Below the pieces are notes generated by a model that was not told the origin of the DNA, did no database searches, and was given only the letters and a program-made list of their open reading frames with translations. Positions 2,669 through 26,823 of a stretch of DNA of 39,175 nt are shown piece by piece (within the stretch, counting starts at the first letter, position 1; each line of letters begins with the position of its first letter). Both the position numbers and the translations under genes were made by a program. Source of the stretch: a virus (taxonomy: Duplodnaviria; Heunggongvirae; Uroviricota; Caudoviricetes); IMG/VR virus record IMGVR_UViG_2627853910_000005; one strand, given 5' to 3'.

Positions 2669-5045
2669 TAGATTGACTCCCCCATCTGAGCATCAGTCAA
2701 TGCCTTGTGCCATATTCTGAAATTCCTGACATGACCAAATAAATGACGCAACCCGGCTGTAGTCTGGCCTCCAATACGGATAATTGCGGAGTTCTGAATA
2801 TAGGACCATGTGGCTTTCTTTTCGCTAGATATACGCCCGTTACTTACTGAGCACGTAGACTGATCTGACTTTACACGCATCCCCATAACCATTTTTTCAA
2901 GCGATGCGTTTTCGTTTACCCGTCTGTTAGCCAAACCTATATCACAATAAGGAAATCCGTCGTAATCTGTTGAACGACCGAAGCCAAGAATAATAGCCGC
3001 TCCGGTTTGATGACCGCCGGTATCAAAAACACGCGGTGCTGCATTTGGCGTTTTATACCAGTTCTTATGTACCTCACAAAGAACCGTAAAAGGAAGATTA
3101 TAAAGGTTATTCTTGATTGGGACTGTCACCATATCGCTTGCGCGAGTGCTTGCAGTTATATCAGTTACAATAAATGACGAAGCACTTGATCCACCTTCCA
3201 CTTGTGGAGTTGCGATATCCAGATAGTCTCCAGATGCTGTACCTGAACCTTTTACAGGAGCGTATTGAACCATCGCACCAATCATGCTCTCTGTATCTAG
3301 TGCATTAATTGTAGCCTGATAGAAAATCCAACCAGTAACCTCATCTTTTACAGCCTTTGCAATAATACGGTCTGCAGCAGTACCAGTTTTATCAATTACA
3401 AGTGTTGATAAATTGAGGTAAGCATCTCCCAAAAAAGTGTAAGTATAACCATCATGGTGTTCAAATCTTAAACGACACCTTATATTTTCAACATCACTTC
3501 TTACACGGCATGAAATGGTCACATATTTTTCATCACCTGTGACATCAAACCCTTTACTGCCAGAAATCGTTACGATATTAATAGCACTTGTCTGACCAAT
3601 AAGAGTATCTTTTACAGTAAATCTCCCATAAGTAAAATTAAAAGAATCCGTGGATATTTCTGTGAGTTCCAGATTGCCTGACTTATTCCATTTAGATGGA
3701 TTTGTTGAATTAAGCAGAAGATTAGTTCTTTGCCCCTCAATAAGCAGGCCATCACGTTCAAATCGTGGCTCATCAATGGCAGCCTCTGTCAGCACACCAG
3801 ATTTGTTAATATAGGTTGCTTTCGATGCACGTTTAAACTTAACAATCTTGTCGCCAGGCATCGTTATTTCGTCGTCACCAATAACAATCTTTTTATATGA
3901 TGGCAAAAAGCCCGTAATCATATCCAGTGAATCGTTAAACGGTATCCACACATCAGGCAGCGGCTGTAAGACATATTTATACGGATCTGCTGCCTGGCTT
4001 GCATACTCTCTGGCTGCGTCTTCACTTGCTTTTGCAGCGGTCTGGCTTGCAGCGGATGCTTTCGCCGAGTTCGCCGCTGCAGTCTCGCTTGTCTTTGCAT
4101 TGGTTTCACTGGTTTTTGCTGCTTTTTGACTGTTGGCTGATGCAGTGGCAGAAGCAGCCGCCGCGCTTGCAGAACCAGCTGCAGCACTCTCGCTTTGGGC
4201 TGCTGCATCCTGACTGTTTTTCGCCGCAGTTTCGCTGGCTTTGGCATTCGTTTCGCTGGTCTTCGCTGCCGTCTGGCTGGACTTTGCGTTAGTTTCACTC
4301 GTCTTCGCAGCTTTCTGGCTGTTAGCCGCAGCAGTTGCTGATCCAGCTGCTGAAGTCGCAGAACCGGCTGCCGCGCTCTCGCTTTGGGCTGCTGCAACCT
4401 GGCTGTTTTTTGCCGCAGTTTCACTGGCTTTGGCATTCGTTTCGCTTGTTTTCGCTGCCGTCTGGCTGGACTTTGCGTTGGTTTCGCTCGTCTTTGCGGC
4501 TGTCTCGCTATTTTTCGCGTTGGTTTCTGATTTTTGGCTGCTGTCGCGGAGTTTGCCGATGCAGTCTGCGAGGACGCTGCCGCCTGTGCGCTGTTAGCTG
4601 CATTTGTTTCTGAGGTTTTCGCCGCGTTCTTCGATGATGCCGCTGCAGTTTCGGATTTCTTTGCCGCTGCTGCGCTCTGAGAGGCGGCTTCGGCGTTGCG
4701 TGCCGCTTCTTCCACCATTGCCTCAAAACGACGCAATGCCTCCGGCATGACATCATCTTCCGTCATGGCACCGAGAAAATCATTCAGCGTACCTGGTCTG
4801 GAACCTTCATAGACGGTAATGGTCCCGGCATGTGAAGGCGGAAAACCTTCAACCAGCAGGGTGACGCTGTACTGACCATACTCAACATCCATGCTGTAAC
4901 GCCCGGCTTCATCCGGATTTTCAGAGGCCACCGTGTTCACCAGTACCGTGGTGCTGTTACGCTTTGCCTTCAGTTGAATAGTGCAGTTCTGTATTGGTTT
5001 TCCCGCACCATCTTTCAGCACACCTGAGATTTTTACTGCTGCCAT
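2668..5045 (-). pseudogene. stf: Side tail fibre (Stf) gene interrupted by a single-base frameshift
   Basis: The first ~160 aa match the lambda Stf N-terminus (MAAVKISGVLKDGAGKPIQNCTIQLKA...), followed by Ala/Ser/Thr-rich AAKTSETNA-type repeats. The frame breaks at an A5 run (plus-strand T5 at 4531-4535) and the sensible translation continues in another frame to a concanavalin/LamG-like C-terminal tip (RHLFGHVRNFRIWHKALTDAQM). One extra A would restore a continuous protein of about 792 aa. Confidence 0.7.
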
Positions 5046-5054
5046 ATCCACTCC

Positions 5055-5083
5055 ACAAAAAAGCCCGCCTGAACCGGCGGGCT
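5055..5083 (-). terminator. Rho-independent terminator after lom
   Basis: On the minus strand: AGCCCGCC-loop-GGCGGGCT stem followed by TTTTTTG. Lies between the lom stop (5110) and the stf start (5045). Confidence 0.5.
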
Positions 5084-5109
5084 GTCATAACACTGTGTTA
5101 CCTGGCTAA

Positions 5110-5709
5110 TCAGAACTTATAACCGACACCCACGATGAAACCGTCAGTGCGCCAGTCGCCACTGCCGGAGCCTTCATAAGCAATATCAATGGCCACGGAT
5201 TCGGTCGGGTTAAACTGCACGCCAGCCCCCCACGCCAGAGACGTGTTGCTGTGGCGACCGTCATCACTTCCGGTCAGCACATCGTGCTTTTTCCCCTTGT
5301 TGTCAGTTACGCGAAGATAATCCCCGGAGAAAGTCGACACACGGCTGTAAGCTACACCCGCCATCGCATACGCGCTGAACCATTCATTCACGCGCACAGA
5401 CGGCCCCGCCATTACGCTGAACCAGCGGTTACGAACGGAATCTTCATGCCAGCGGGTATCGCTGTAACGGGTCAGCTGGCGATTCTTGTCTCCTGCATAG
5501 CTGAATGACGTCACCAGCCCCAGTGTGTCCGTAAACTCATAACGGTATTTCACGTTAATCCCGTTCAGATCATCACTGCCGGGGACGTTCGTCGAGGCAT
5601 GAAGATACCCCGCGCTCAGCGTGGACTGATGTTCAGACGCCCATGCAGGCGCACCGGATACGGCCAGACAAATGGCTGCGGACAAAATGGCTGCACAAAC
5701 TTTACGCAT
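5110..5709 (-). CDS. lom: Outer membrane protein Lom (Ail/Lom family)
   Basis: 199 aa with signal peptide. Near-identical to my recollection of lambda Lom (MRK.CAAILSAAICLAVSGAPAWASEHQSTLSAGYLH...GFIVGVGYKF). Confidence 0.93.
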   Translation of the reverse strand: MRKVCAAILSAAICLAVSGAPAWASEHQSTLSAGYLHASTNVPGSDDLNGINVKYRYEFTDTLGLVTSFSYAGDKNRQLTRYSDTRWHEDSVRNRWFSVMAGPSVRVNEWFSAYAMAGVAYSRVSTFSGDYLRVTDNKGKKHDVLTGSDDGRHSNTSLAWGAGVQFNPTESVAIDIAYEGSGSGDWRTDGFIVGVGYKF

Positions 5710-5776
5710 AATTACCTCTCGCTTTTCTGCAATAAAAAAGGCGCCATTTCTGGCGCCCGTATATGGGTTATAAAAT

Positions 5777-8700
5777 TCAGCTGATACTGATGCCTGCGGT
5801 GGCTTTCTTCATCACCACAACCAGCAAATCGCTGATACTTGCTGTGGGATACCAGTCATTTACCAGCCATGCTGACACCGAAAACTCCAGCGTCATGTGA
5901 CCGTGACCGGCAGGCATATCAATAACGCCACTGTAAATCAGCGTATTATCCAGCGCGGTACGGTTATAAATTTCAGCACCGTTTTTCCGCACTATCAGAC
6001 GGCATGAGGAGTAAATATCAGTATGCTCTCTCTCATGTTTAGCGCCGCTGAATGCCACCGCAGGAATAACAATCTGCCGGTCAAACGGCTGATCGTCATA
6101 AACCCTGACGGTAATGGTCCCTGATGGCCACCGTTCCGGTGCACGGGAGTCCCGGGGGAAAGCTTTGCCCACTGTTTTAACGAGATCGCCTTCAATCTGG
6201 TTCGCGGACAGTTTTCCCAGAACCCGACAGTTCTCGTTAATCGTGACGTTGTTGAGCGTCCCGGAGTTCGCATTCACGTTACCGCTGATATCGGCATTTT
6301 TCGCCGTCAGCCGCCCATCCGGTGTCAGGGAAAATGCCGGAGGATTACCGCCGCTGGTAATGGTCGGAGCCGTCAGGCGTTTCAGGAACACGTCGTTCAT
6401 GAATATCTGATCGCCCTGACCAACAAACATTGGTCTTGTGTTGCCATTAGACGGATCAATAAACGCGATACGGTTAGCGGCAACCAGGAACTGGCTCAGT
6501 TTGCCTTCCTCCGTGTCCTCCATGCTGAGGCCAATACCCGCGACATAATGTTTGCCGTCTTTGGTCTGCTCAATTTTGACGCCCCACATGGCATTCCACT
6601 TATCACTGGCGTCCTTCCACTCTTTCGAAAACTCCTCCAGTTTGCTGGCGTTATCCTCCGTCAGCTCGACTTTTTCCAGCAGCTCCTTGCCAAGATGGGA
6701 TTCGGTTATCTGGCCTTTGAAAAAATCCAGGTAACCTTCCGCATCATCGCTCGCCCGACCAACAGCCTCCACGAATGCCGATTTGCCAACGGTGTTCACA
6801 CTGCGAACGTAAAAATAATAATCATGGCCCGGCCTGATATTGATACTGGCAGCTATCCAGTACAGCGCCGTGCCAAGATAGCGGGCTGTGGTTTCAACCT
6901 GCCTGATATCCGCAATCCGTTTTTCCGAGAACCAGAACTCAAACTGTACCGTCGGGTCATAAACCGCAAGATGTGGCGTGGCGGTTATCTGAAAATAGCC
7001 CGGTGTCAGCTCAATCCGAGACGGCGCTGCCGGTGCGGCAATCCGGAACGATACCGATGCCGGATCGCCCTGCAGCCCCCACGCATTTACCGCCCGGACC
7101 GTCAGCATGTAACGCCCCAGCGCCAGTTGCGTGAAGCGGTATGTGGTTTCCGTCGTCCGGGCCGTGCTGACCAGCCGCTCACTGCCGTCATCCGCTGCCA
7201 CGGTCAGGCGAAGCAGGAAGCTCACGCCCTTCACCACTTTCGGCGTGTCCCAGCGGGCCAGCACCTGATATTCCCCGCTGTCTGCGGTGACTTCGGCAGT
7301 CAGGTGCTGCACCGCTGGCGGCGTGACACCATTCACCGTGCCGCTCTGGTCGCCGTCAAAGTGCGCCCCGTTATCCACGATGGCCTCTTTCTCCGGTACA
7401 TGCTGCACGGCAGTGATGGCATACGTGCCGTCGTCGTTCTCACGGATACTCACGCAGCGGAACAGGCGCTGGCGCAACGTCGGCAACTTCAGCCCCCACA
7501 CGCTGTATTCAGCAACGCCGTCAGGAACACGGCTCACTTTCACCTTCACGCCGTCGGTGACGGACTGGACCTCCACGCTGACCGGATTACCCTCACCGTC
7601 AACCAGGCTTATCAGCGTGGTGCCGGAGGATGGCAGCGTGATTTCACGGTCGAGCGTCAGCGTCCGGGTCTGGCTGTTCACCGCCAGCACGCGACCACCG
7701 ATGCTGATACCGGCATAGTCATCATCGCAGATTTCAATAACATCGCCCGGCACATGGCGAAGCCCTTCTGCGCCCACGCTGAAATCCACGGTCTGCGTTT
7801 CCAGCAGTTCCGTTTTAATCAGCCACAGCCCGGCTCGGTGTGCCTGCCCCCGACTGGTACAACCAAAGGCATCCATCTTCGTGACATTACGACCGTAACG
7901 GGCAATGGCCTGCGTATCTTCAACAAGCTCTGTCGCCGTCTCCCAGCCGTTGTTCGGGTCAATCCAGTTCACCTCAACGGCATTATGGCGGTCCTTCAGG
8001 GCGCTGAAGCTGTAGCGGAACGGCGCGCCATCATCCGGCATCACCACATTACTGCGGTTATAGGTCCACACCTTATCCGACTGTCGGTCCTGCACGAACG
8101 TCAGCGTCTGCCCGTTCCATACCGGCATACAGCGCATCGCCGAGCAGAAATCACTGAGCACATCCCACGCCTTGCGCTGTGTGGTCAGGTAAGCGTTACA
8201 GGTGATGCGCGGCTCCGTGCCGCCAAAGCCGTCCGGCACCGACTGGTCGCAATTCTGGCCGATGACATACAGCGCCCATTTATCCACATCCGCCGCACCA
8301 AGACGTTTCCCCATGCCGTAGCGCGGATGGGTCAGCATATCCCACAGACACCAGGCCATGTTGTTGCTGTATGCCGGTTTTAACGTTCCGTCCCAGATAC
8401 CGCTGTATTGCCGCGTCTGCGGGTTATAGTTCGACGGCACCTGCAGAATGCGCCCGCGAAGATGATAATTACGGCTCACCTGCTGGCTGCCGAACTGCTC
8501 CGAGTCCACCTGCACGCCAACCAGTGCCGTGTTCGGGTAGCACTGTTTCACATCGATGATTTCGGTGTATGACGACCAGAGCGTTTTGTTCTGCAGCTGG
8601 TCTGTGGTGCTGTCCGGCGTCATCCTGCGCATCCGGATATTAAACGGGCGCGGCGGCAGGTTATCCACCACCACCGAGGCCAGATACTGCGAGGTGGTTT

Positions 8701-21044: not shown

Positions 21045-22072
<1,028 letters not shown>

Positions 22073-22185
22073 GGATATTTATCAGGATTTATCGGCTTCA
22101 AATCCCCGGATATGTTAAATCTTACCTCACCAGTGATGGGCACTGGCGGGAGGAGGATGTCAATCTGATAAACACAGAGGTGACT

Positions 22186-22446
22186 ATGGATTACACAAAT
22201 CTACCAAAACAAACTTTTGCTGATTTAATCGCACTCAGGCAAGCAGTCGTAGCTCTAATCAACTTGTTGCCGGAGAAGGAAAAGGAATTAGTTAAAGCGC
22301 TTCTTAACAGAACTGCCGCCGATTTTTCATCATATCCACTGACAGATGACCTTGCGGACCTTCCTGAATTAATTGCAGCGTCCGCCATTAAGCTTACTGA
22401 AGAGATTTACCCTCCTCAAAAATCTTCACAAAATTCCTGCGAGTAA
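22186..22446 (+). CDS. Hypothetical protein (86 aa) antisense within the lysis cassette
   Basis: ATG at 22186 with GAGG 5 nt upstream. Convergent with, and overlapping the 3' end of, the DUF1327-like gene. No domain recognised. Confidence 0.3.
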   Translation: MDYTNLPKQTFADLIALRQAVVALINLLPEKEKELVKALLNRTAADFSSYPLTDDLADLPELIAASAIKLTEEIYPPQKSSQNSCE

Positions 22447-22945
22447 CTTCAATGCAATAATCGTAAAACGCCGCAAACTGCTCATCGCGGCGTTTTTTTT
22501 CATCTTCAGAAGGGATCAGCACCGACAATTTTTTATTCAGATCAGCGACGCTGCCCTCCAGTTTTTCAATGGGCGATTCAATATCATCTTTTTCTGACCG
22601 CAATGCCGTCGGTGGCGTCTTCAGAGAACCAGTAATTCTTCCCGGTAGCTTTCCTTTGTAGGTTATCCACACATTCTGCGCCTCTAAAATTATGGGGCGC
22701 TTTTCCGGCGACTGCTCATCCCCTACACATAACCCGGCAGCAACATCCAGGAATACCTGTCTGATTCTCATTCTGGCTGCTGCCTCATAAAACTCCAGCG
22801 CGGCACCTTCAACACGGTCCAGCGAGATGTCCAGGTCAAAAATTTCACCGTCAAAGCGTTTTTTGTCCCGTAAGGCTACAGTTACCGCCACTTTATTCTC
22901 AAAATTGCGGACTCCTTTCACAACCAGTTCATAGTCTTGTGTCAT
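22394..22945 (-). CDS. DUF1327 (YdfR-like) family protein with extended C-terminus
   Basis: The N-terminal ~80 aa (MTQDYELVVKGVRNFENKVAVTVALRDKKRFDGEIFDLD...) resemble my recollection of Qin YdfR; the C-terminal ~100 aa are extra. Sits between holin and endolysin. Confidence 0.5.
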   Translation of the reverse strand: MTQDYELVVKGVRNFENKVAVTVALRDKKRFDGEIFDLDISLDRVEGAALEFYEAAARMRIRQVFLDVAAGLCVGDEQSPEKRPIILEAQNVWITYKGKLPGRITGSLKTPPTALRSEKDDIESPIEKLEGSVADLNKKLSVLIPSEDEKKRRDEQFAAFYDYCIEVTRRNFVKIFEEGKSLQ

Positions 22946-22949
22946 TGGA

Positions 22950-23165
22950 TTACTCTCTTCTCGCAACCTTACGCCTGTCTTCTTTAATCTTGAAATAAAG
23001 GTTTGTCAGATACGTCAGCAGGCCAAAAACCAGACTACCCAGCACACCGATTGCAGCCCACTGTGACGGAGTTACTTTATCGAGTAACTGCAATGCCCAG
23101 AAACCAGCATTACCAGCCGATGTGCCATAGGCGATACCTGTTGTTAACTTATCCATTGATTTCAT
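22950..23165 (-). CDS. Class II holin (phage 21 S-type pinholin)
   Basis: 71 aa; [66 protein letters not shown] closely resembles S21. Two TM helices and a charged C-terminus. Confidence 0.85.
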
Positions 23166-23613: not shown

Positions 23614-23637
23614 AAAAAACCCGCCTGAGCGGGTTTA
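23614..23637. terminator. Bidirectional rho-independent terminator
   Basis: AACCCGC-CTGA-GCGGGTT stem flanked by an A-run upstream and T-rich sequence downstream. Confidence 0.5.
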
Positions 23638-23917
23638 ATATTGTGGTACTTTTTGTGGGAGTCATCCACTTACGCACTTTGTTTTGCTATGCCAGCAGTT
23701 AGCTTCTGCTGTAAAACTATTCATGCAGCAAACCTGCACTTCACCACAATGGTTAGCATACTTTTCCTGATTAAGTTATTGCCAAATATGCTGGCCATTG
23801 TTTCATGTATTGGACCTCCTTACTATTTATTAAAGAGATCCAATATTCACCACTCTGTCTGTATCTCCACTCAGGCATCAGCCTTCTTCGTTATCGTATA
23901 CAGACAAACTATGAATT

Positions 23918-24133
23918 TTAATCAGTAATTATGACATTTGCTGCTGCAGGACCTTTAGCACCACTCTCTACAGAGAAGGTAACCTTTTGACCTTCAAACA
24001 AGGTTCGAAAATTATCATTCTGAATCGCAGAAAAATGCACAAACACATCTTTACTACCATCAACAGGAGAAATAAAGCCAAAACCTTTATCAGCGTTAAA
24101 CCATTTTACTAAACCAGTCATTTTATTTGACAT
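23918..24133 (-). CDS. cspB: Cold shock protein (CspA family)
   Basis: [38 protein letters not shown]... is a canonical cold-shock domain. Divergent from cspF, as in Qin. Confidence 0.85.
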
Positions 24134-24433
24134 TCTACATTCCTTAACTTGAGCCTTTCGGCATAAATGGCTTGTATAACAGAAACGACTTCGTACTTAA
24201 TTGGAGAGACTCAAAGAAGGAATAAGTGAATAACACCTGAAATGAGAACTGCTTTAGTAAACTACTTCGTATATCGTCTGTTCTTCAAACCGACGCAATC
24301 ATTAACGCATAGTTGAACATATGAAGCAATGTTTATTTTAGACATCCAGCCATCTTCAACCCCATCAAAAAACTATAGCTTTCTTCAGGAACGTGTGTAT
24401 AGTGCGCCCAGTTATCAGTATTAAGGAATTTTT

Positions 24434-24646
24434 TTGTCCCGTAAAATGACAGGAATTGTCAAAACCTTTGACGGCAAAAGCGGCAAGGGTCTTATCACCC
24501 CATCCGATGGTCGTATCGATGTCCAGCTTCATGTTTCAGCGCTCAATCTCCGCGATGCAGAAGAAATTACCACCGGATTACGCGTGGAATTTTGCCGGAT
24601 AAATGGTCTGCGTGGCCCTTCAGCTGCCAATGTTTACCTTTCATGA
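24434..24646 (+). CDS. cspF: Cold shock protein paralogue (CspF/CspH-like)
   Basis: [38 protein letters not shown]... is a divergent cold-shock domain. Apparent TTG start with SD TAAGGAA 5 nt upstream. Confidence 0.8.
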
Positions 24647-24700: not shown

Positions 24701-24790
24701 ATGAATAACCCCGTCTGTCTTGATGACTGGTTGATTGGCTTTAAAAGCTTATGCTGTACTTTGACCGTAATAGCTCTGCTAATAATGTAA
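24701..24790 (+). CDS. Candidate small hydrophobic peptide (29 aa)
   Basis: ATG preceded by GGAGAG at 6 nt spacing. Product [29 protein letters not shown] has a single hydrophobic helix. Lies 55 nt downstream of cspF. Confidence 0.25.
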
Positions 24791-24931: not shown

Positions 24932-24957
24932 AAAAACCCGCTCATCAGCGGGTTTTC
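24932..24957. terminator. Bidirectional terminator (cspF 3' end / candidate tR')
   Basis: AACCCGC-TCATCA-GCGGGTT stem with T-rich runs on both strands. On the minus strand it lies about 40-60 nt downstream of the candidate late promoter. Confidence 0.5.
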
Positions 24958-25001
24958 TACTTTTTCTTAACGTCGGGTATATAAAGCCCATCGTTGAAAA
25001 A

Positions 25002-25030
25002 ATTTTATCCATATTTTTTGAAAAATGCAA
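25002..25030 (-). promoter_or_regulatory. Candidate Q-dependent late promoter (pR'-like)
   Basis: On the minus strand: TTGCAT (25030-25025), 17-bp spacer, TAAAAT (25007-25002), immediately downstream of the Q gene stop. Confidence 0.5.
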
Positions 25031-25061
25031 GCATTACGTCGCCATCTTCGGCGAAAATCAT

Positions 25062-25814
25062 TTATCTCGTCACTTTTCTTAATTGCACCTCAGCATATGC
25101 TTCTTCCTGCCAGCACTTTGTAACCAGTTTATCAATGACATCTGCATATCCTTTGTACCACTGATAATCAGTCAGGTCTGGTACCAGCTTCTGGACATGA
25201 CACCGCGCCAGTGTCGTTGGTAAACGACTAAACCGGTTTCCATTGCAACGCCCACAAATCTTATAAACAGGCGCGCCATGAAGCCGGGTCCTTTTTTCAT
25301 CCAGGACAATACCTTTACCCTTACACCCTCTGCACGCTGTGCTGACTTCTCCCTTACCATGACAATGCTGACATAGTTCCTTCACCCACTCTTCCTTGAT
25401 AACAGACTCCCCGCTTCTGGAGTATTTCACCACTTCGCGCAATACATTATGAAATCCAGTACCAGCACAAGGCTCACAGCGAGCCTTACTTGCCGCAGAC
25501 CTGGAATAATCAGCAAAGGCAAAACTCACAAGGTAAGGGATGATCTGTAACCGGATTTCTTCACTCAATTTGTTCAATGTCGGGTTATCCAGTGCCATCG
25601 CGTAATTGAGCAGACCTTCAATCGCAAACTGAGGATCCTGAACGCCAGCTTTTGCCAGGAATAAGGCAAACCCAAGCGGTGCTTTCGACTGCACCATCCC
25701 CTGCGCAGCCATCACATCCGTAATCGTTAAACCACCTGAGCCTGTCGCCGGTGCGGCATCACTCAATTTTGGAGATTTTGGGGAGTAATATTTTGGTAAG
25801 GCTTCAAGGTTCAT
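25062..25814 (-). CDS. Q: Late gene antiterminator Q (phage 82 / Qin type)
   Basis: 250 aa from the internal ATG. Cys-rich zinc-binding region (CEPCAGTG...CQHCHGKG...CRGCKGKG). Sits upstream of the late promoter and lysis genes. Confidence 0.8.
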   Translation of the reverse strand: MNLEALPKYYSPKSPKLSDAAPATGSGGLTITDVMAAQGMVQSKAPLGFALFLAKAGVQDPQFAIEGLLNYAMALDNPTLNKLSEEIRLQIIPYLVSFAFADYSRSAASKARCEPCAGTGFHNVLREVVKYSRSGESVIKEEWVKELCQHCHGKGEVSTACRGCKGKGIVLDEKRTRLHGAPVYKICGRCNGNRFSRLPTTLARCHVQKLVPDLTDYQWYKGYADVIDKLVTKCWQEEAYAEVQLRKVTR

Positions 25815-25827
25815 GCTCGTTCTCCAC

Positions 25828-26823
25828 TTACGCCAGTACGCCAATTGCCAGCGCACGATCGATAAAACGAAATATCAGCTCCAGTTGGGAGCCATACTTC
25901 TCTTCAAATGTCACGGTATCCGCATGCAGCTCGTCGTGATGCTTTCTGCACAAAGGCAACACAAAGAGATCATGCGCTTTTGTACCCATTCCACCCTGAC
26001 CGTGGCCTATCAGGTGGTGGGAATCATCAGCTGGCTTTCCACAACATGCGCACGGCTGCGTCTTAACCCAGCGCGTGTACTTTTCATTAACCCAGCGGCG
26101 ACGTTTGGGGCGTAACATAAAAGACTCCGGCGACTCCGGATCCACTTTCAGCGCCAGCACCTTTTTCGCTTTATCCTGGATGATGCTGGTGGCAGGAACC
26201 GAAGGCACAAGGTCACTTTCCCGGGTGACAGATGGCACAACAGGCTTCGGTAATCTCAGTGCCTTACGGGCTGCACTTTCCGGTAAGGCATCCGCCAAAT
26301 CATTACGAACCAGCCACCAGCACAGTTCCGGCATTGTCACAACGTGACTGTCATCAAAACCGAGATCCCGACGCACGACAGACAACACCCAGCGGGCACA
26401 GTTATCCGTTGCCATTGATTCCAGCCGTTCCGTGAACTGGTCACGCAGCTGGTTATCGCAGTGCCAGCACAGACGAATTGCTCCCGGAGCGTGCCGCATT
26501 GTGGTCATGTTCTCGCTGTGCCAGTCGGAATGAGGCCACTGACAGCCCTTTTCACGAAGTAACCAGCTTTCAAGACATTCCACGCCACCAGCACGACGGA
26601 TCACTGCCTCATTGCGGAACACGGCCCGAACGGCAGGATCATCCGCCAGCGGTTGTGATGCCGCCGGAACGGCACCACTGGCGAAAGATGAATAACGTTC
26701 CGGCTCAGGCTCCAGCAGGACACGCCCCTGCATAAACAGGGGCATCAGCTCTGAACCTGGCCTGAACAATACAATCCCCATACGCGGGGCAATTTCAGGG
26801 GTCAGTAGTGCTCTCACGGTCAC
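25828..26823 (-). CDS. DUF968-family protein with C-terminal HNH nuclease motif (YdfU-like)
   Basis: C-terminal CACCGKPADDSHHLIGHGQGG...HDLFVLPLCRKHHDELH is an HNH-type zinc finger. Sits between Q and the nin-like genes. Confidence 0.7.
   Translation of the reverse strand: MTVRALLTPEIAPRMGIVLFRPGSELMPLFMQGRVLLEPEPERYSSFASGAVPAASQPLADDPAVRAVFRNEAVIRRAGGVECLESWLLREKGCQWPHSDWHSENMTTMRHAPGAIRLCWHCDNQLRDQFTERLESMATDNCARWVLSVVRRDLGFDDSHVVTMPELCWWLVRNDLADALPESAARKALRLPKPVVPSVTRESDLVPSVPATSIIQDKAKKVLALKVDPESPESFMLRPKRRRWVNEKYTRWVKTQPCACCGKPADDSHHLIGHGQGGMGTKAHDLFVLPLCRKHHDELHADTVTFEEKYGSQLELIFRFIDRALAIGVLA

Follow-up and report, generated by a model that had tools for sequence, protein, structure and literature searches.

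A probable lambda-type late regulatory cassette directly downstream of the Q antiterminator gene in a Qin-like prophage

The window, by which we mean the whole 39,175-nt stretch of viral DNA that was analysed, carries on its minus strand a gene for a Q antiterminator, and the intergenic region that follows this gene contains promoter-like hexamers and a hairpin. The putative -35 hexamer starts 31 nt past the Q stop codon (TAA, 25064-25062, minus strand) and is succeeded by a 17-nt spacer, a -10 hexamer and, after the six nucleotides TTTTTC, the sequence AACGATGGG. Further along the same strand lies the hairpin, which has the form AAAACCCGCT-GATG-AGCGGGTTTT and runs into TGTGCTTT. On its far side are two plus-strand genes, a ynfS homologue and cspF, followed by cspB on the minus strand and then by the late genes of that strand, which include those for the holin, the lysozyme, the terminase and the tail (Table 1). 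An Rfam match to RF01766 (23855-24294, 160 bits) covers the whole of the cspB feature and extends 63 nt past the cspB stop codon, and the transcription start site (TSS) reported for cspB in K-12 gives a 161-nt 5'UTR (Kim 2012).

Table 1. Features from the Q gene to the lysis genes, in the order in which minus-strand transcription would meet them; the roles of the intergenic elements are predicted.
Feature	Position	Strand	Basis
Q antiterminator gene, 250 aa from ATG	25062..25814	minus	Pfam, PDB, RefSeq ydfT
Putative -35 of PR', TTGCAT	25030-25025	minus	sequence; same place as lambda TTGACT
17-nt spacer TTTTCAAAAAATATGGA, candidate Q binding element (QBE)	25024-25008	minus	conservation, likeness to lambda
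Putative -10 of PR', TAAAAT	25007-25002	minus	5/6 to TATAAT
Predicted +1 (A24995) and sigma-dependent pause element AACGAT, then GGG (+1 to +9)	24995-24987	minus	identity with lambda 9-mer
Predicted terminated leader RNA, about 68 nt, counterpart of lambda 6S RNA	24995-24928	minus	K-12 Term-seq homologue
tR' intrinsic terminator, 10-bp stem, GATG loop; U-rich tail to about 24928-24925	24956-24933	minus	folding, relatives
ynfS homologue, 29 aa, between cspF and the hairpin	24701..24790	plus	translations, K-12/CFT073 annotation
cspF	24434..24646	plus	Pfam CSD, annotation
cspB with its own cspA-type 5'UTR	23918..24294	minus	Rfam RF01766, Pfam CSD
Second terminator-like hairpin, in the cspB/holin gap	23636-23617	minus	terminator scan
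Lysis genes: holin essQ (22950-23165), DUF1327 ORF, lysozyme rrrQ (21539-22072)	21539..23165	minus	Pfam, annotation

The 753-nt ydfT gene is annotated by RefSeq in CFT073 and K-12. An alternative GTG start at 25856 would lengthen the Q protein of the window by 14 residues; the alignment with the Q-lambda structure begins at M15 of this longer reading frame, which is the ATG at 25814 and gives the 250-residue protein. Three families of Q proteins are distinguished, Q21 (PF06530), Q-lambda (PF03589) and Q82 (PF06323), and there is no sequence similarity among them (PMC9388147, PMC7171158). The Q protein encoded in the window matches the PF03589 (Antiterm) model with an E value of 1.6e-52, and the sole solved structures that it matches are the Q-lambda entries 7UBM, 4MO1 and 7UBJ (best E = 2e-36), whereas the Q82 and Q21 models were not among its Pfam matches at E <= 0.01. 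Conservation extends to the N-terminal segment, which in Q-lambda makes up the exit-channel nozzle. Given the PF03589 match and the restriction of the structural matches to Q-lambda, the protein is of the lambda type. An earlier note on this DNA had called it an 82-type Q, which is wrong on the strength of these matches and of a pause element that is lambda's own. A phage 21-type cassette was also considered and rejected, PF06530 being absent from the matches at that threshold and the PDB matches being Q-lambda entries only.

The promoter coordinates and spacing in the earlier note (TTGCAT, 17 nt and TAAAAT on the minus strand) are indeed what the sequence reads, but its description of the promoter as near-consensus for sigma70 was overstated. 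The site is absent from the output of a promoter scan run on the window, an omission explained by a -35 hexamer that agrees with TTGACA at only three of six positions. Sites of the form TTGnnn, 17 nt and at least five of six matches to TATAAT occur six times in the window, where 5.2 +/- 2.4 would be expected, and so the PR' hexamers alone are not above chance. As far as can be judged from the DNA, it is the sequence context and not the hexamers that decides for a late promoter. The composite of TTGCAT, the conserved spacer, TAnnnT, six nucleotides and AACGATGGG occurs once in the window, with 0.00 occurrences expected. Lambda PR' reads TTGACT, 17 nt, TAAATT, TGACTC and AACGATGGG, and the geometry in the window (-35, 17 nt, -10, 6 nt, +1) is identical. 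Under this geometry the transcript would start at A24995, and its predicted 5' end would be identical at +1 to +9 to the region of the lambda PR' sigma-dependent pause element, which is equally far from its -10. The start site that had been placed near 24995 thus falls exactly on the predicted equivalent of the lambda PR' +1. In lambda, the sigma-dependent pause element brings about a pause at +16/+17 (PMC9191641).

Conservation among relatives singles out the same elements. Eighty viral contigs encode a Q protein at least 96% identical to that of the window, and these contigs, together with phage records and K-12, yielded 46 distinct 175-nt versions of the post-Q region, of which 42 were compared after a lambda hybrid and three degenerate versions had been left out. 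Mean pairwise identity among the 42 versions was 0.91 from the Q stop codon to the -35, 0.96 in the -35, 0.96 in the 17-nt spacer, 0.89 in the -10, 0.74 in the discriminator, 0.97 in AACGAT, 0.97 in GGGCTTT, 0.73 from +14 to +39, 0.76 in the hairpin and 0.41 beyond the T-run. The -35, the spacer and AACGATGGGCTTT, with 96-97% mean pairwise identity, are therefore the most conserved intergenic stretches. The -10 occurs as TAAAAT, TAAGAT, TAGGAT or TAAAGT, with A2 and T6 kept in the intact versions that were read. In the spacer, 13 of the 17 columns are invariant among the 42 relatives, and the lambda spacer, TATTGAATAAAATTGGG, is identical to that of the window at 11 of 17 positions by manual count. 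The Q binding site is known to sit between the -35 and the -10 (PMC6266700), and we infer that the 17-nt spacer is the site bound by Q in the cassette of the window.

In a natural hybrid (L039), the sequence is of the window type as far as AACGATGGG and thereafter that of the lambda 6S/tR'/S region at 97.5% identity; the position of this junction implies that the window and lambda promoters are equivalent at that point. The homology of the Q module to phage mEp460 stops at 24932, given as the last T of the T-run. Nine related loci have a degenerate promoter and a weak hairpin, which indicates that the PR'/tR' element can decay. Of 5,426 complete E. coli genomes, 1,553 have matches covering 80% or more of the 1.6-kb stretch from Q to cspF.

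An intrinsic terminator, comprising the hairpin and its U-tract, is present between the promoter and the late genes. The hairpin had been placed about 40-60 nt past the promoter, and its position at +40 to +63 bears this out. Its stem includes four A-U pairs, and the 76-nt leader that begins at 24995 folds with -27.8 kcal/mol (z = -5.8), a value equalled by none of 200 shuffled sequences. The SfV and Ayreon records label the hairpin as a terminator. Rfam returned no family for the leader, just sub-threshold matches to attenuator leaders that are caused by the hairpin. The hairpin varies in sequence among the relatives, with stems such as CCCGC/GCGGG, CTCGC/GCGAG, CCTCGC/GCGAGG and, with a UUCG loop, CCTCGC/GCGGGG, and a hairpin followed by a T-run was formed by all 17 distinct versions that were folded individually. 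Covariation in the alignment was modest, with double changes in three of five core pairs and a low covariation term, since indels put the columns out of register; the individual folds were used in its place.

The hairpin is flanked by an A-tract and a T-tract, and the plus-strand copy of the region also folds (z = -6.0). A terminator scan of the window lists the hairpin on the plus strand only; in our reading, the scan misses the minus strand because the extension of the stem there uses up the T-run. In the same scan the hairpin is the first plus-strand terminator-like site after cspF, the gene whose transcript it had been said to terminate. Between the cspF stop codon and the hairpin, however, there are 287 nt that include the ynfS homologue, the plus-strand U-tract of the hairpin is interrupted (UUUUCUACUUUUUC), and the hairpin is kept in relatives and phages that have no cspF. 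Its retention in relatives lacking cspF argues that the hairpin serves first of all as tR', the late terminator. The earlier note thus overstated the link to cspF, and any use of the hairpin by cspF is secondary and putative.

The Qin prophage of K-12 has a nearly identical copy of the element, whose predicted +1 is minus-strand position 1,642,422, and published RNA data for K-12 bear on the function of this copy. Supplementary file 1 of Adams et al. 2021 contains a dominant minus-strand 3' end at 1,642,356, classed as orphan, which is entered at least twice (scores of 103,591 and 55,367.6) with the flanking sequence ...AAAACCCGCTGATGAGCGGGTTTTGTGC (PMC7815308). This end is 8 nt past the stem and, with the predicted +1, implies a 67-nt RNA. 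The Term-seq coordinates returned around the K-12 hairpin were all on the minus strand, with no plus-strand 3' end among them, and a Rho-termination region antisense to ydfT shows plus-strand transcription beyond the hairpin in K-12. These data show that the K-12 copy of the hairpin stops minus-strand transcription in vivo; a Term-seq end is silent on where the RNA started. The predicted +1 is absent from the K-12 TSS table of Kim et al. 2012, which covers the locus and has entries for cspB, cspF and ydfU; as this table assigns starts to annotated genes, it may miss a 67-nt RNA. With a start recorded ahead of ydfU but not at the +1, the 3' end could belong instead to a ydfU-ydfT transcript that ends at the same hairpin. 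In the copies searched, the supplements of the Cappable-seq and SMRT-Cappable-seq studies contained no coordinates matching the locus, and the RNET-seq data set of sigma70 pauses has no entry for it.

We consider it highly probable that the region serves a Q-lambda-family antiterminator of a Qin-like prophage as its late regulatory cassette (PR', QBE, sigma-dependent pause element and tR'). The earlier proposal of a Q-dependent late promoter and early terminator directly after Q is in this respect supported by the Q family, the promoter geometry, the pause element and the hairpin, all of them features of the sequence. In the mechanism that we propose, sigma70 RNA polymerase would initiate at about A24995 on the minus strand, and sigma region 2 would re-bind the -10-like AACGAT at +1 to +6 and cause a promoter-proximal pause, near +16/+17 by analogy with lambda. 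Without Q, the polymerase would leave the pause and terminate at the hairpin with its U-tract (24956-24928), setting free a transcript of about 68 nt. Once the adjacent upstream gene supplies Q, the protein would bind the conserved spacer between the -35 and the -10 and load onto the paused complex, and the Q-loaded polymerase would then ignore tR' and later terminators. Transcription would proceed antisense through the ynfS homologue and cspF and then into cspB, the holin and lysozyme genes and the remaining late genes. By the layout of the window, such read-through would also cross the second terminator-like hairpin, in the gap from cspB to the holin gene. Late transcription running antisense through cspF before it reaches cspB and the lysis genes had been suggested earlier, and the layout is as suggested; the same layout is found in the complete phage genome 2H10.

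It is possible, though on balance unlikely, that the cassette is intact in sequence and yet idle in a defective prophage, which would qualify the above explanation rather than compete with it. Positions 15574/15575 of the window join mEp460 positions 3020 and 8540, and the 5.5 kb lost between them extends from the portal to the major tail gene. A prophage with this deletion cannot make particles, and with head and tail genes lost the cassette may have ceased to play a part in phage production in its host. In the same direction point the annotation of the ydfR-like gene as a pseudogene in CFT073, the annotation of K-12 Qin as a cryptic prophage, and the nine related loci with decayed promoters and weak hairpins. 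An idle cassette is harder to reconcile with a Q protein that is 100% identical to that of phage 2H10 and promoter-to-terminator DNA that is 99.5% identical to this complete phage genome, or with holin and lysozyme ORFs that are intact. The lambda-qin111 hybrids of Espion et al. (1983) also count against it, as they are said to have implied that the Q-to-lysis region of K-12 Qin can replace that of lambda. An idle cassette would still give the short leader RNA, with cspB and the lysis genes added if Q were ever expressed.

We give a lower probability still to the idea that Q of the window belongs to a distinct branch of the Q-lambda family with a long arm, whose members load in a manner unlike lambda Q. 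In lambda, a TTGACT situated near the pause element is the site for sigma region 4. This TTGACT is one base upstream of the lambda pause element, whereas the window has TTTTTT at -7 to -2. Likewise, the T-N-Y-G that lambda has at +14 to +17 is missing from the window, which has A-T-A-T there; most relatives have T-A-T-G one base past this register. Both departures from lambda count against the late-cassette explanation proposed above. The T-N-Y-G motif stabilises the lambda pause (PMC9191641), and the zinc arm of Q-lambda contacts the QBE and the repositioned sigma region 4 (PMC9388147). In the window Q this arm is enlarged by about 40 residues with two additional CxxCxGxG motifs, and an insertion of this kind (40-70 extra residues and two more such motifs) is shared by the Q proteins of ES18, Klebsiella GZ7, Erwinia 59 and YeP1. 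With TTGACT and T-N-Y-G lacking from the promoter and the arm enlarged, the arm could have a different means of holding sigma region 4 or of taking its place.

A very different account is that the hairpin is merely a convergent terminator shared by ydfU-Q on one strand and cspF-ynfS on the other, that the hexamers are a chance match, and that there is no late promoter. Its merits are that the hexamers occur at chance level and go unlisted by the promoter scan, that the hairpin carries tracts of both kinds (A and T) and forms on either strand, and that in K-12 a TSS lies upstream of ydfU with none listed at the predicted +1, the Term-seq 3' end being silent on the origin of the RNA. A simple convergent terminator would not be expected, however, to be preceded by a -35, a spacer and AACGATGGGCTTT that are more conserved than the sequence just past the Q stop codon, nor by a 9-mer that equals the lambda pause element in sequence and in its spacing from the -10. 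The junction of the lambda recombinant falls at that pause element, and the hairpin persists in phages without cspF. We therefore regard this account as very unlikely. A phage 82-type Q with an 82-type PR'/qut/tR' has next to no probability: the layout of Q gene, promoter, early terminator and late genes, which would suit it, is common to all three Q families, and the strong PF03589 match without PF06323 or PF06530, the structural matches to Q-lambda only among families that share no sequence similarity, and a pause element with the lambda AACGAT at +1 to +6 all speak against it.

As a late regulatory cassette of the lambda type, the region is a textbook late-gene switch and an ordinary feature, and the general understanding of Q antitermination is unchanged by it. 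What the analysis does is to annotate correctly the late-gene switch that Qin-like prophages carry. The placement of Q in the lambda rather than the 82 family alters what is predicted for the binding site, for the dependence on NusA and for the loading mechanism, and the cassette offers an explanation for the orphan RNA 3' end in the published K-12 Term-seq data. It also casts cspB and cspF as cargo inserted within the leader of the late operon, where cspF would be transcribed antisense during lytic growth.

Comparison with known systems places the cassette in a familiar setting. Phage 82 follows the same logic, with a Q gene, a late promoter with a sigma-dependent pause, an early terminator and NusA-stimulated antitermination (PMC9388147), but Q82 (PF06323) is unrelated in sequence to Q-lambda and its mechanism may differ (PMC9388147, PMC7171158). 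The PR' promoters of lambda, 21, phi80, 82, P22 and Stx phages are always active in lysogens and give rise to short terminated RNAs, and StxS and lambda 6S RNA are both produced in lysogens by a constitutive late promoter whose transcription is stopped at tR' (PMC7547250). A regulatory role like that of StxS is conceivable for the leader of about 68 nt, whose orphan 3' end is abundant in K-12. StxS is a 258-nt leader that is processed to a 74-nt Hfq-binding sRNA, whereas the unpaired part of the window leader (+14 to +39) is poorly conserved, at 0.73, which argues against such a role.

The closest counterparts are in SfV, mEp460, Ayreon, 2H10 and Stx2c-converting phages, whose Q proteins are 94-100% identical to that of the window and whose promoter-to-terminator DNA is 82-99.5% identical up to the T-run, the upper value being that of 2H10. 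Within this group the -10 varies (TAAGAT or TAGGAT) and the hairpin differs in sequence. Four of these phages, 2H10, mEp460, SfV and Ayreon, are deposited as complete genomes. The cargo downstream of the module also varies, with a methylase, tRNAs or stx2c in some and cspF and cspB in others. In the Stx2c-converting phages, stx2A and stx2B lie about 2.7 kb downstream, and the position of the homologous module upstream of stx2c implies that it gates toxin expression there.

More distant members of the family, P22 (gene 23), ES18 (gene 73), Klebsiella GZ7, Erwinia 59 and Yersinia YeP1, all combine a promoter with a -10-like element where the transcript begins and, shortly downstream, a hairpin terminator, and the ES18 record annotates its terminator. 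Their pause elements differ (AACGAA, TAACAGT, TAACGCT, TAACACT and TAAGGAT), and the promoter, spacer and hairpin sequences of P22, ES18 and other phages of the Q-lambda family are unlike those of the window, as would be expected if each Q recognises its own site. Lambda itself has a Q of the same family (PF03589), about 34-42% identical, with the cassette in the same place immediately after the Q gene and an intrinsic terminator before the lysis genes, as in the window. It differs in its -35, which is TTGACT where the window has TTGCAT, and in its downstream genes, cspF and cspB being situated between tR' and the holin gene in the window. Lambda tR' is about 194 nt downstream of the start, and the lambda hairpin in the sequence is consistent with that distance. 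The terminator in the window, by comparison, occupies +40 to +68 and would yield the much shorter RNA described above. Since the five distant members also have short leaders, a short leader appears to be the norm in this family and the long 6S RNA of lambda the exception.

The module comprising Q, its promoter and the hairpin terminator tR' is shared with Stx2c-converting phages (L005:2501-5141 and L094:227-1608), in which stx2A and stx2B lie ~2.7 kb downstream of it. The order 3' of the module in these phages is a 141-aa ORF, a 75-aa ORF, a DNA methylase gene, genes for tRNA-Met and tRNA-Arg, and then stx2A and stx2B. The N-terminus of the 141-aa ORF resembles a lipoprotein signal.

A natural recombinant of the module is found at the related locus L039 (3251-4333), which carries the window-type Q and promoter as far as AACGATGGG and, beyond that point, is 97.5% identical to lambda across the 6S leader, tR' and S, with the junction located at the pause element common to both promoters. 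A degenerate form is present in nine loci altogether, including L015, L017 and L023 (positions 3251-3425), in which Q is at least 96% identical to that of the window and its 3' end is nearly identical. The promoter region of these loci has TTGTAT, an altered spacer, AATGATGAG and nothing usable as a -10, and their hairpin folds weakly (-8.5 kcal/mol). The degenerate form may reflect decay in cryptic copies or a change in specificity.

RNA ends mapped in K-12, whose Qin prophage has the same promoter-terminator element, bear on both sides of the Q operon. A second "orphan" Term-seq 3' end on the minus strand, at NC_000913.3 1,642,188 (about window 24767), lies 168 nt past tR', antisense to ynfS, and is preceded by a small hairpin without a U-tract; this end implies either that some transcription passes tR' in K-12 or that RNA is processed there. 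On the upstream side, a TSS was reported 326 nt upstream of ydfU at old coordinate 1,642,654 (Kim 2012), which by our own conversion is 1,644,630 (-). Term-seq shows an orphan 3' end ~58 nt downstream of this TSS, and together the two suggest that a short attenuated leader precedes the ydfU-Q operon.

Features of the Q region and the predicted late transcription path
Feature	Location	Strand	Description
Small inverted repeat, TCGCC-GAAGAT-GGCGA	window 25039-25054	-	after the Q stop codon
Second hairpin, with A-tract and T-tract	window 23617-23636		between convergent ynfU (+) and cspB (-)
ydfU-upstream TSS to orphan 3' end	L086 (related locus) about 6573-6631; K-12 1,644,572-1,644,630	-	Kim 2012 TSS and Term-seq

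The cspB gene has a full cspA-type thermoregulator 5'UTR (Rfam RF01766 match at window 23855-24294, minus strand, 160 bits); the start of the match coincides with the K-12 cspB TSS that yields a 161-nt 5'UTR (Kim 2012). Since cspB has its own cspA-type 5'UTR, it is a separately controlled cold-shock gene inside the late operon leader. Q-modified polymerase would also need to pass the second hairpin to reach the holin gene. At its end, the holin gene overlaps a DUF1327 (YdfR-like) ORF of 190 aa (window 22394-22966, minus strand), which is annotated in CFT073 as an incomplete YdfR-family pseudogene; the YdfR of K-12 has 103 aa.

Compared with phage mEp460, the prophage has a clean 5.5-kb deletion at window 15574/15575 (mEp460 3020 to 8540) that took out the genes for the portal, protease/scaffold and connector and most of those for the tail shaft, and it is therefore defective for particle formation.

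The inverted repeat that follows Q is not known to have a function, and its variants display no clear covariation. Lambda and P22 have a comparable inverted repeat, TTGCCA-CGGA-TGGCAA, in the same place. Q itself (25062-25814, minus strand) contains, at about residues 117-167, four CxxCxGxG motifs, whereas the lambda and P22 Q proteins contain two, and the extra ~40-70 residues are within the zinc arm. Q also has a sub-threshold match to Pfam DnaJ_CXXCXGXG (32.5 bits versus a cut-off of 32.7) that is compatible with a DnaJ-like double zinc centre. The enlarged zinc arm is common to ES18, Klebsiella GZ7, Erwinia 59 and YeP1.
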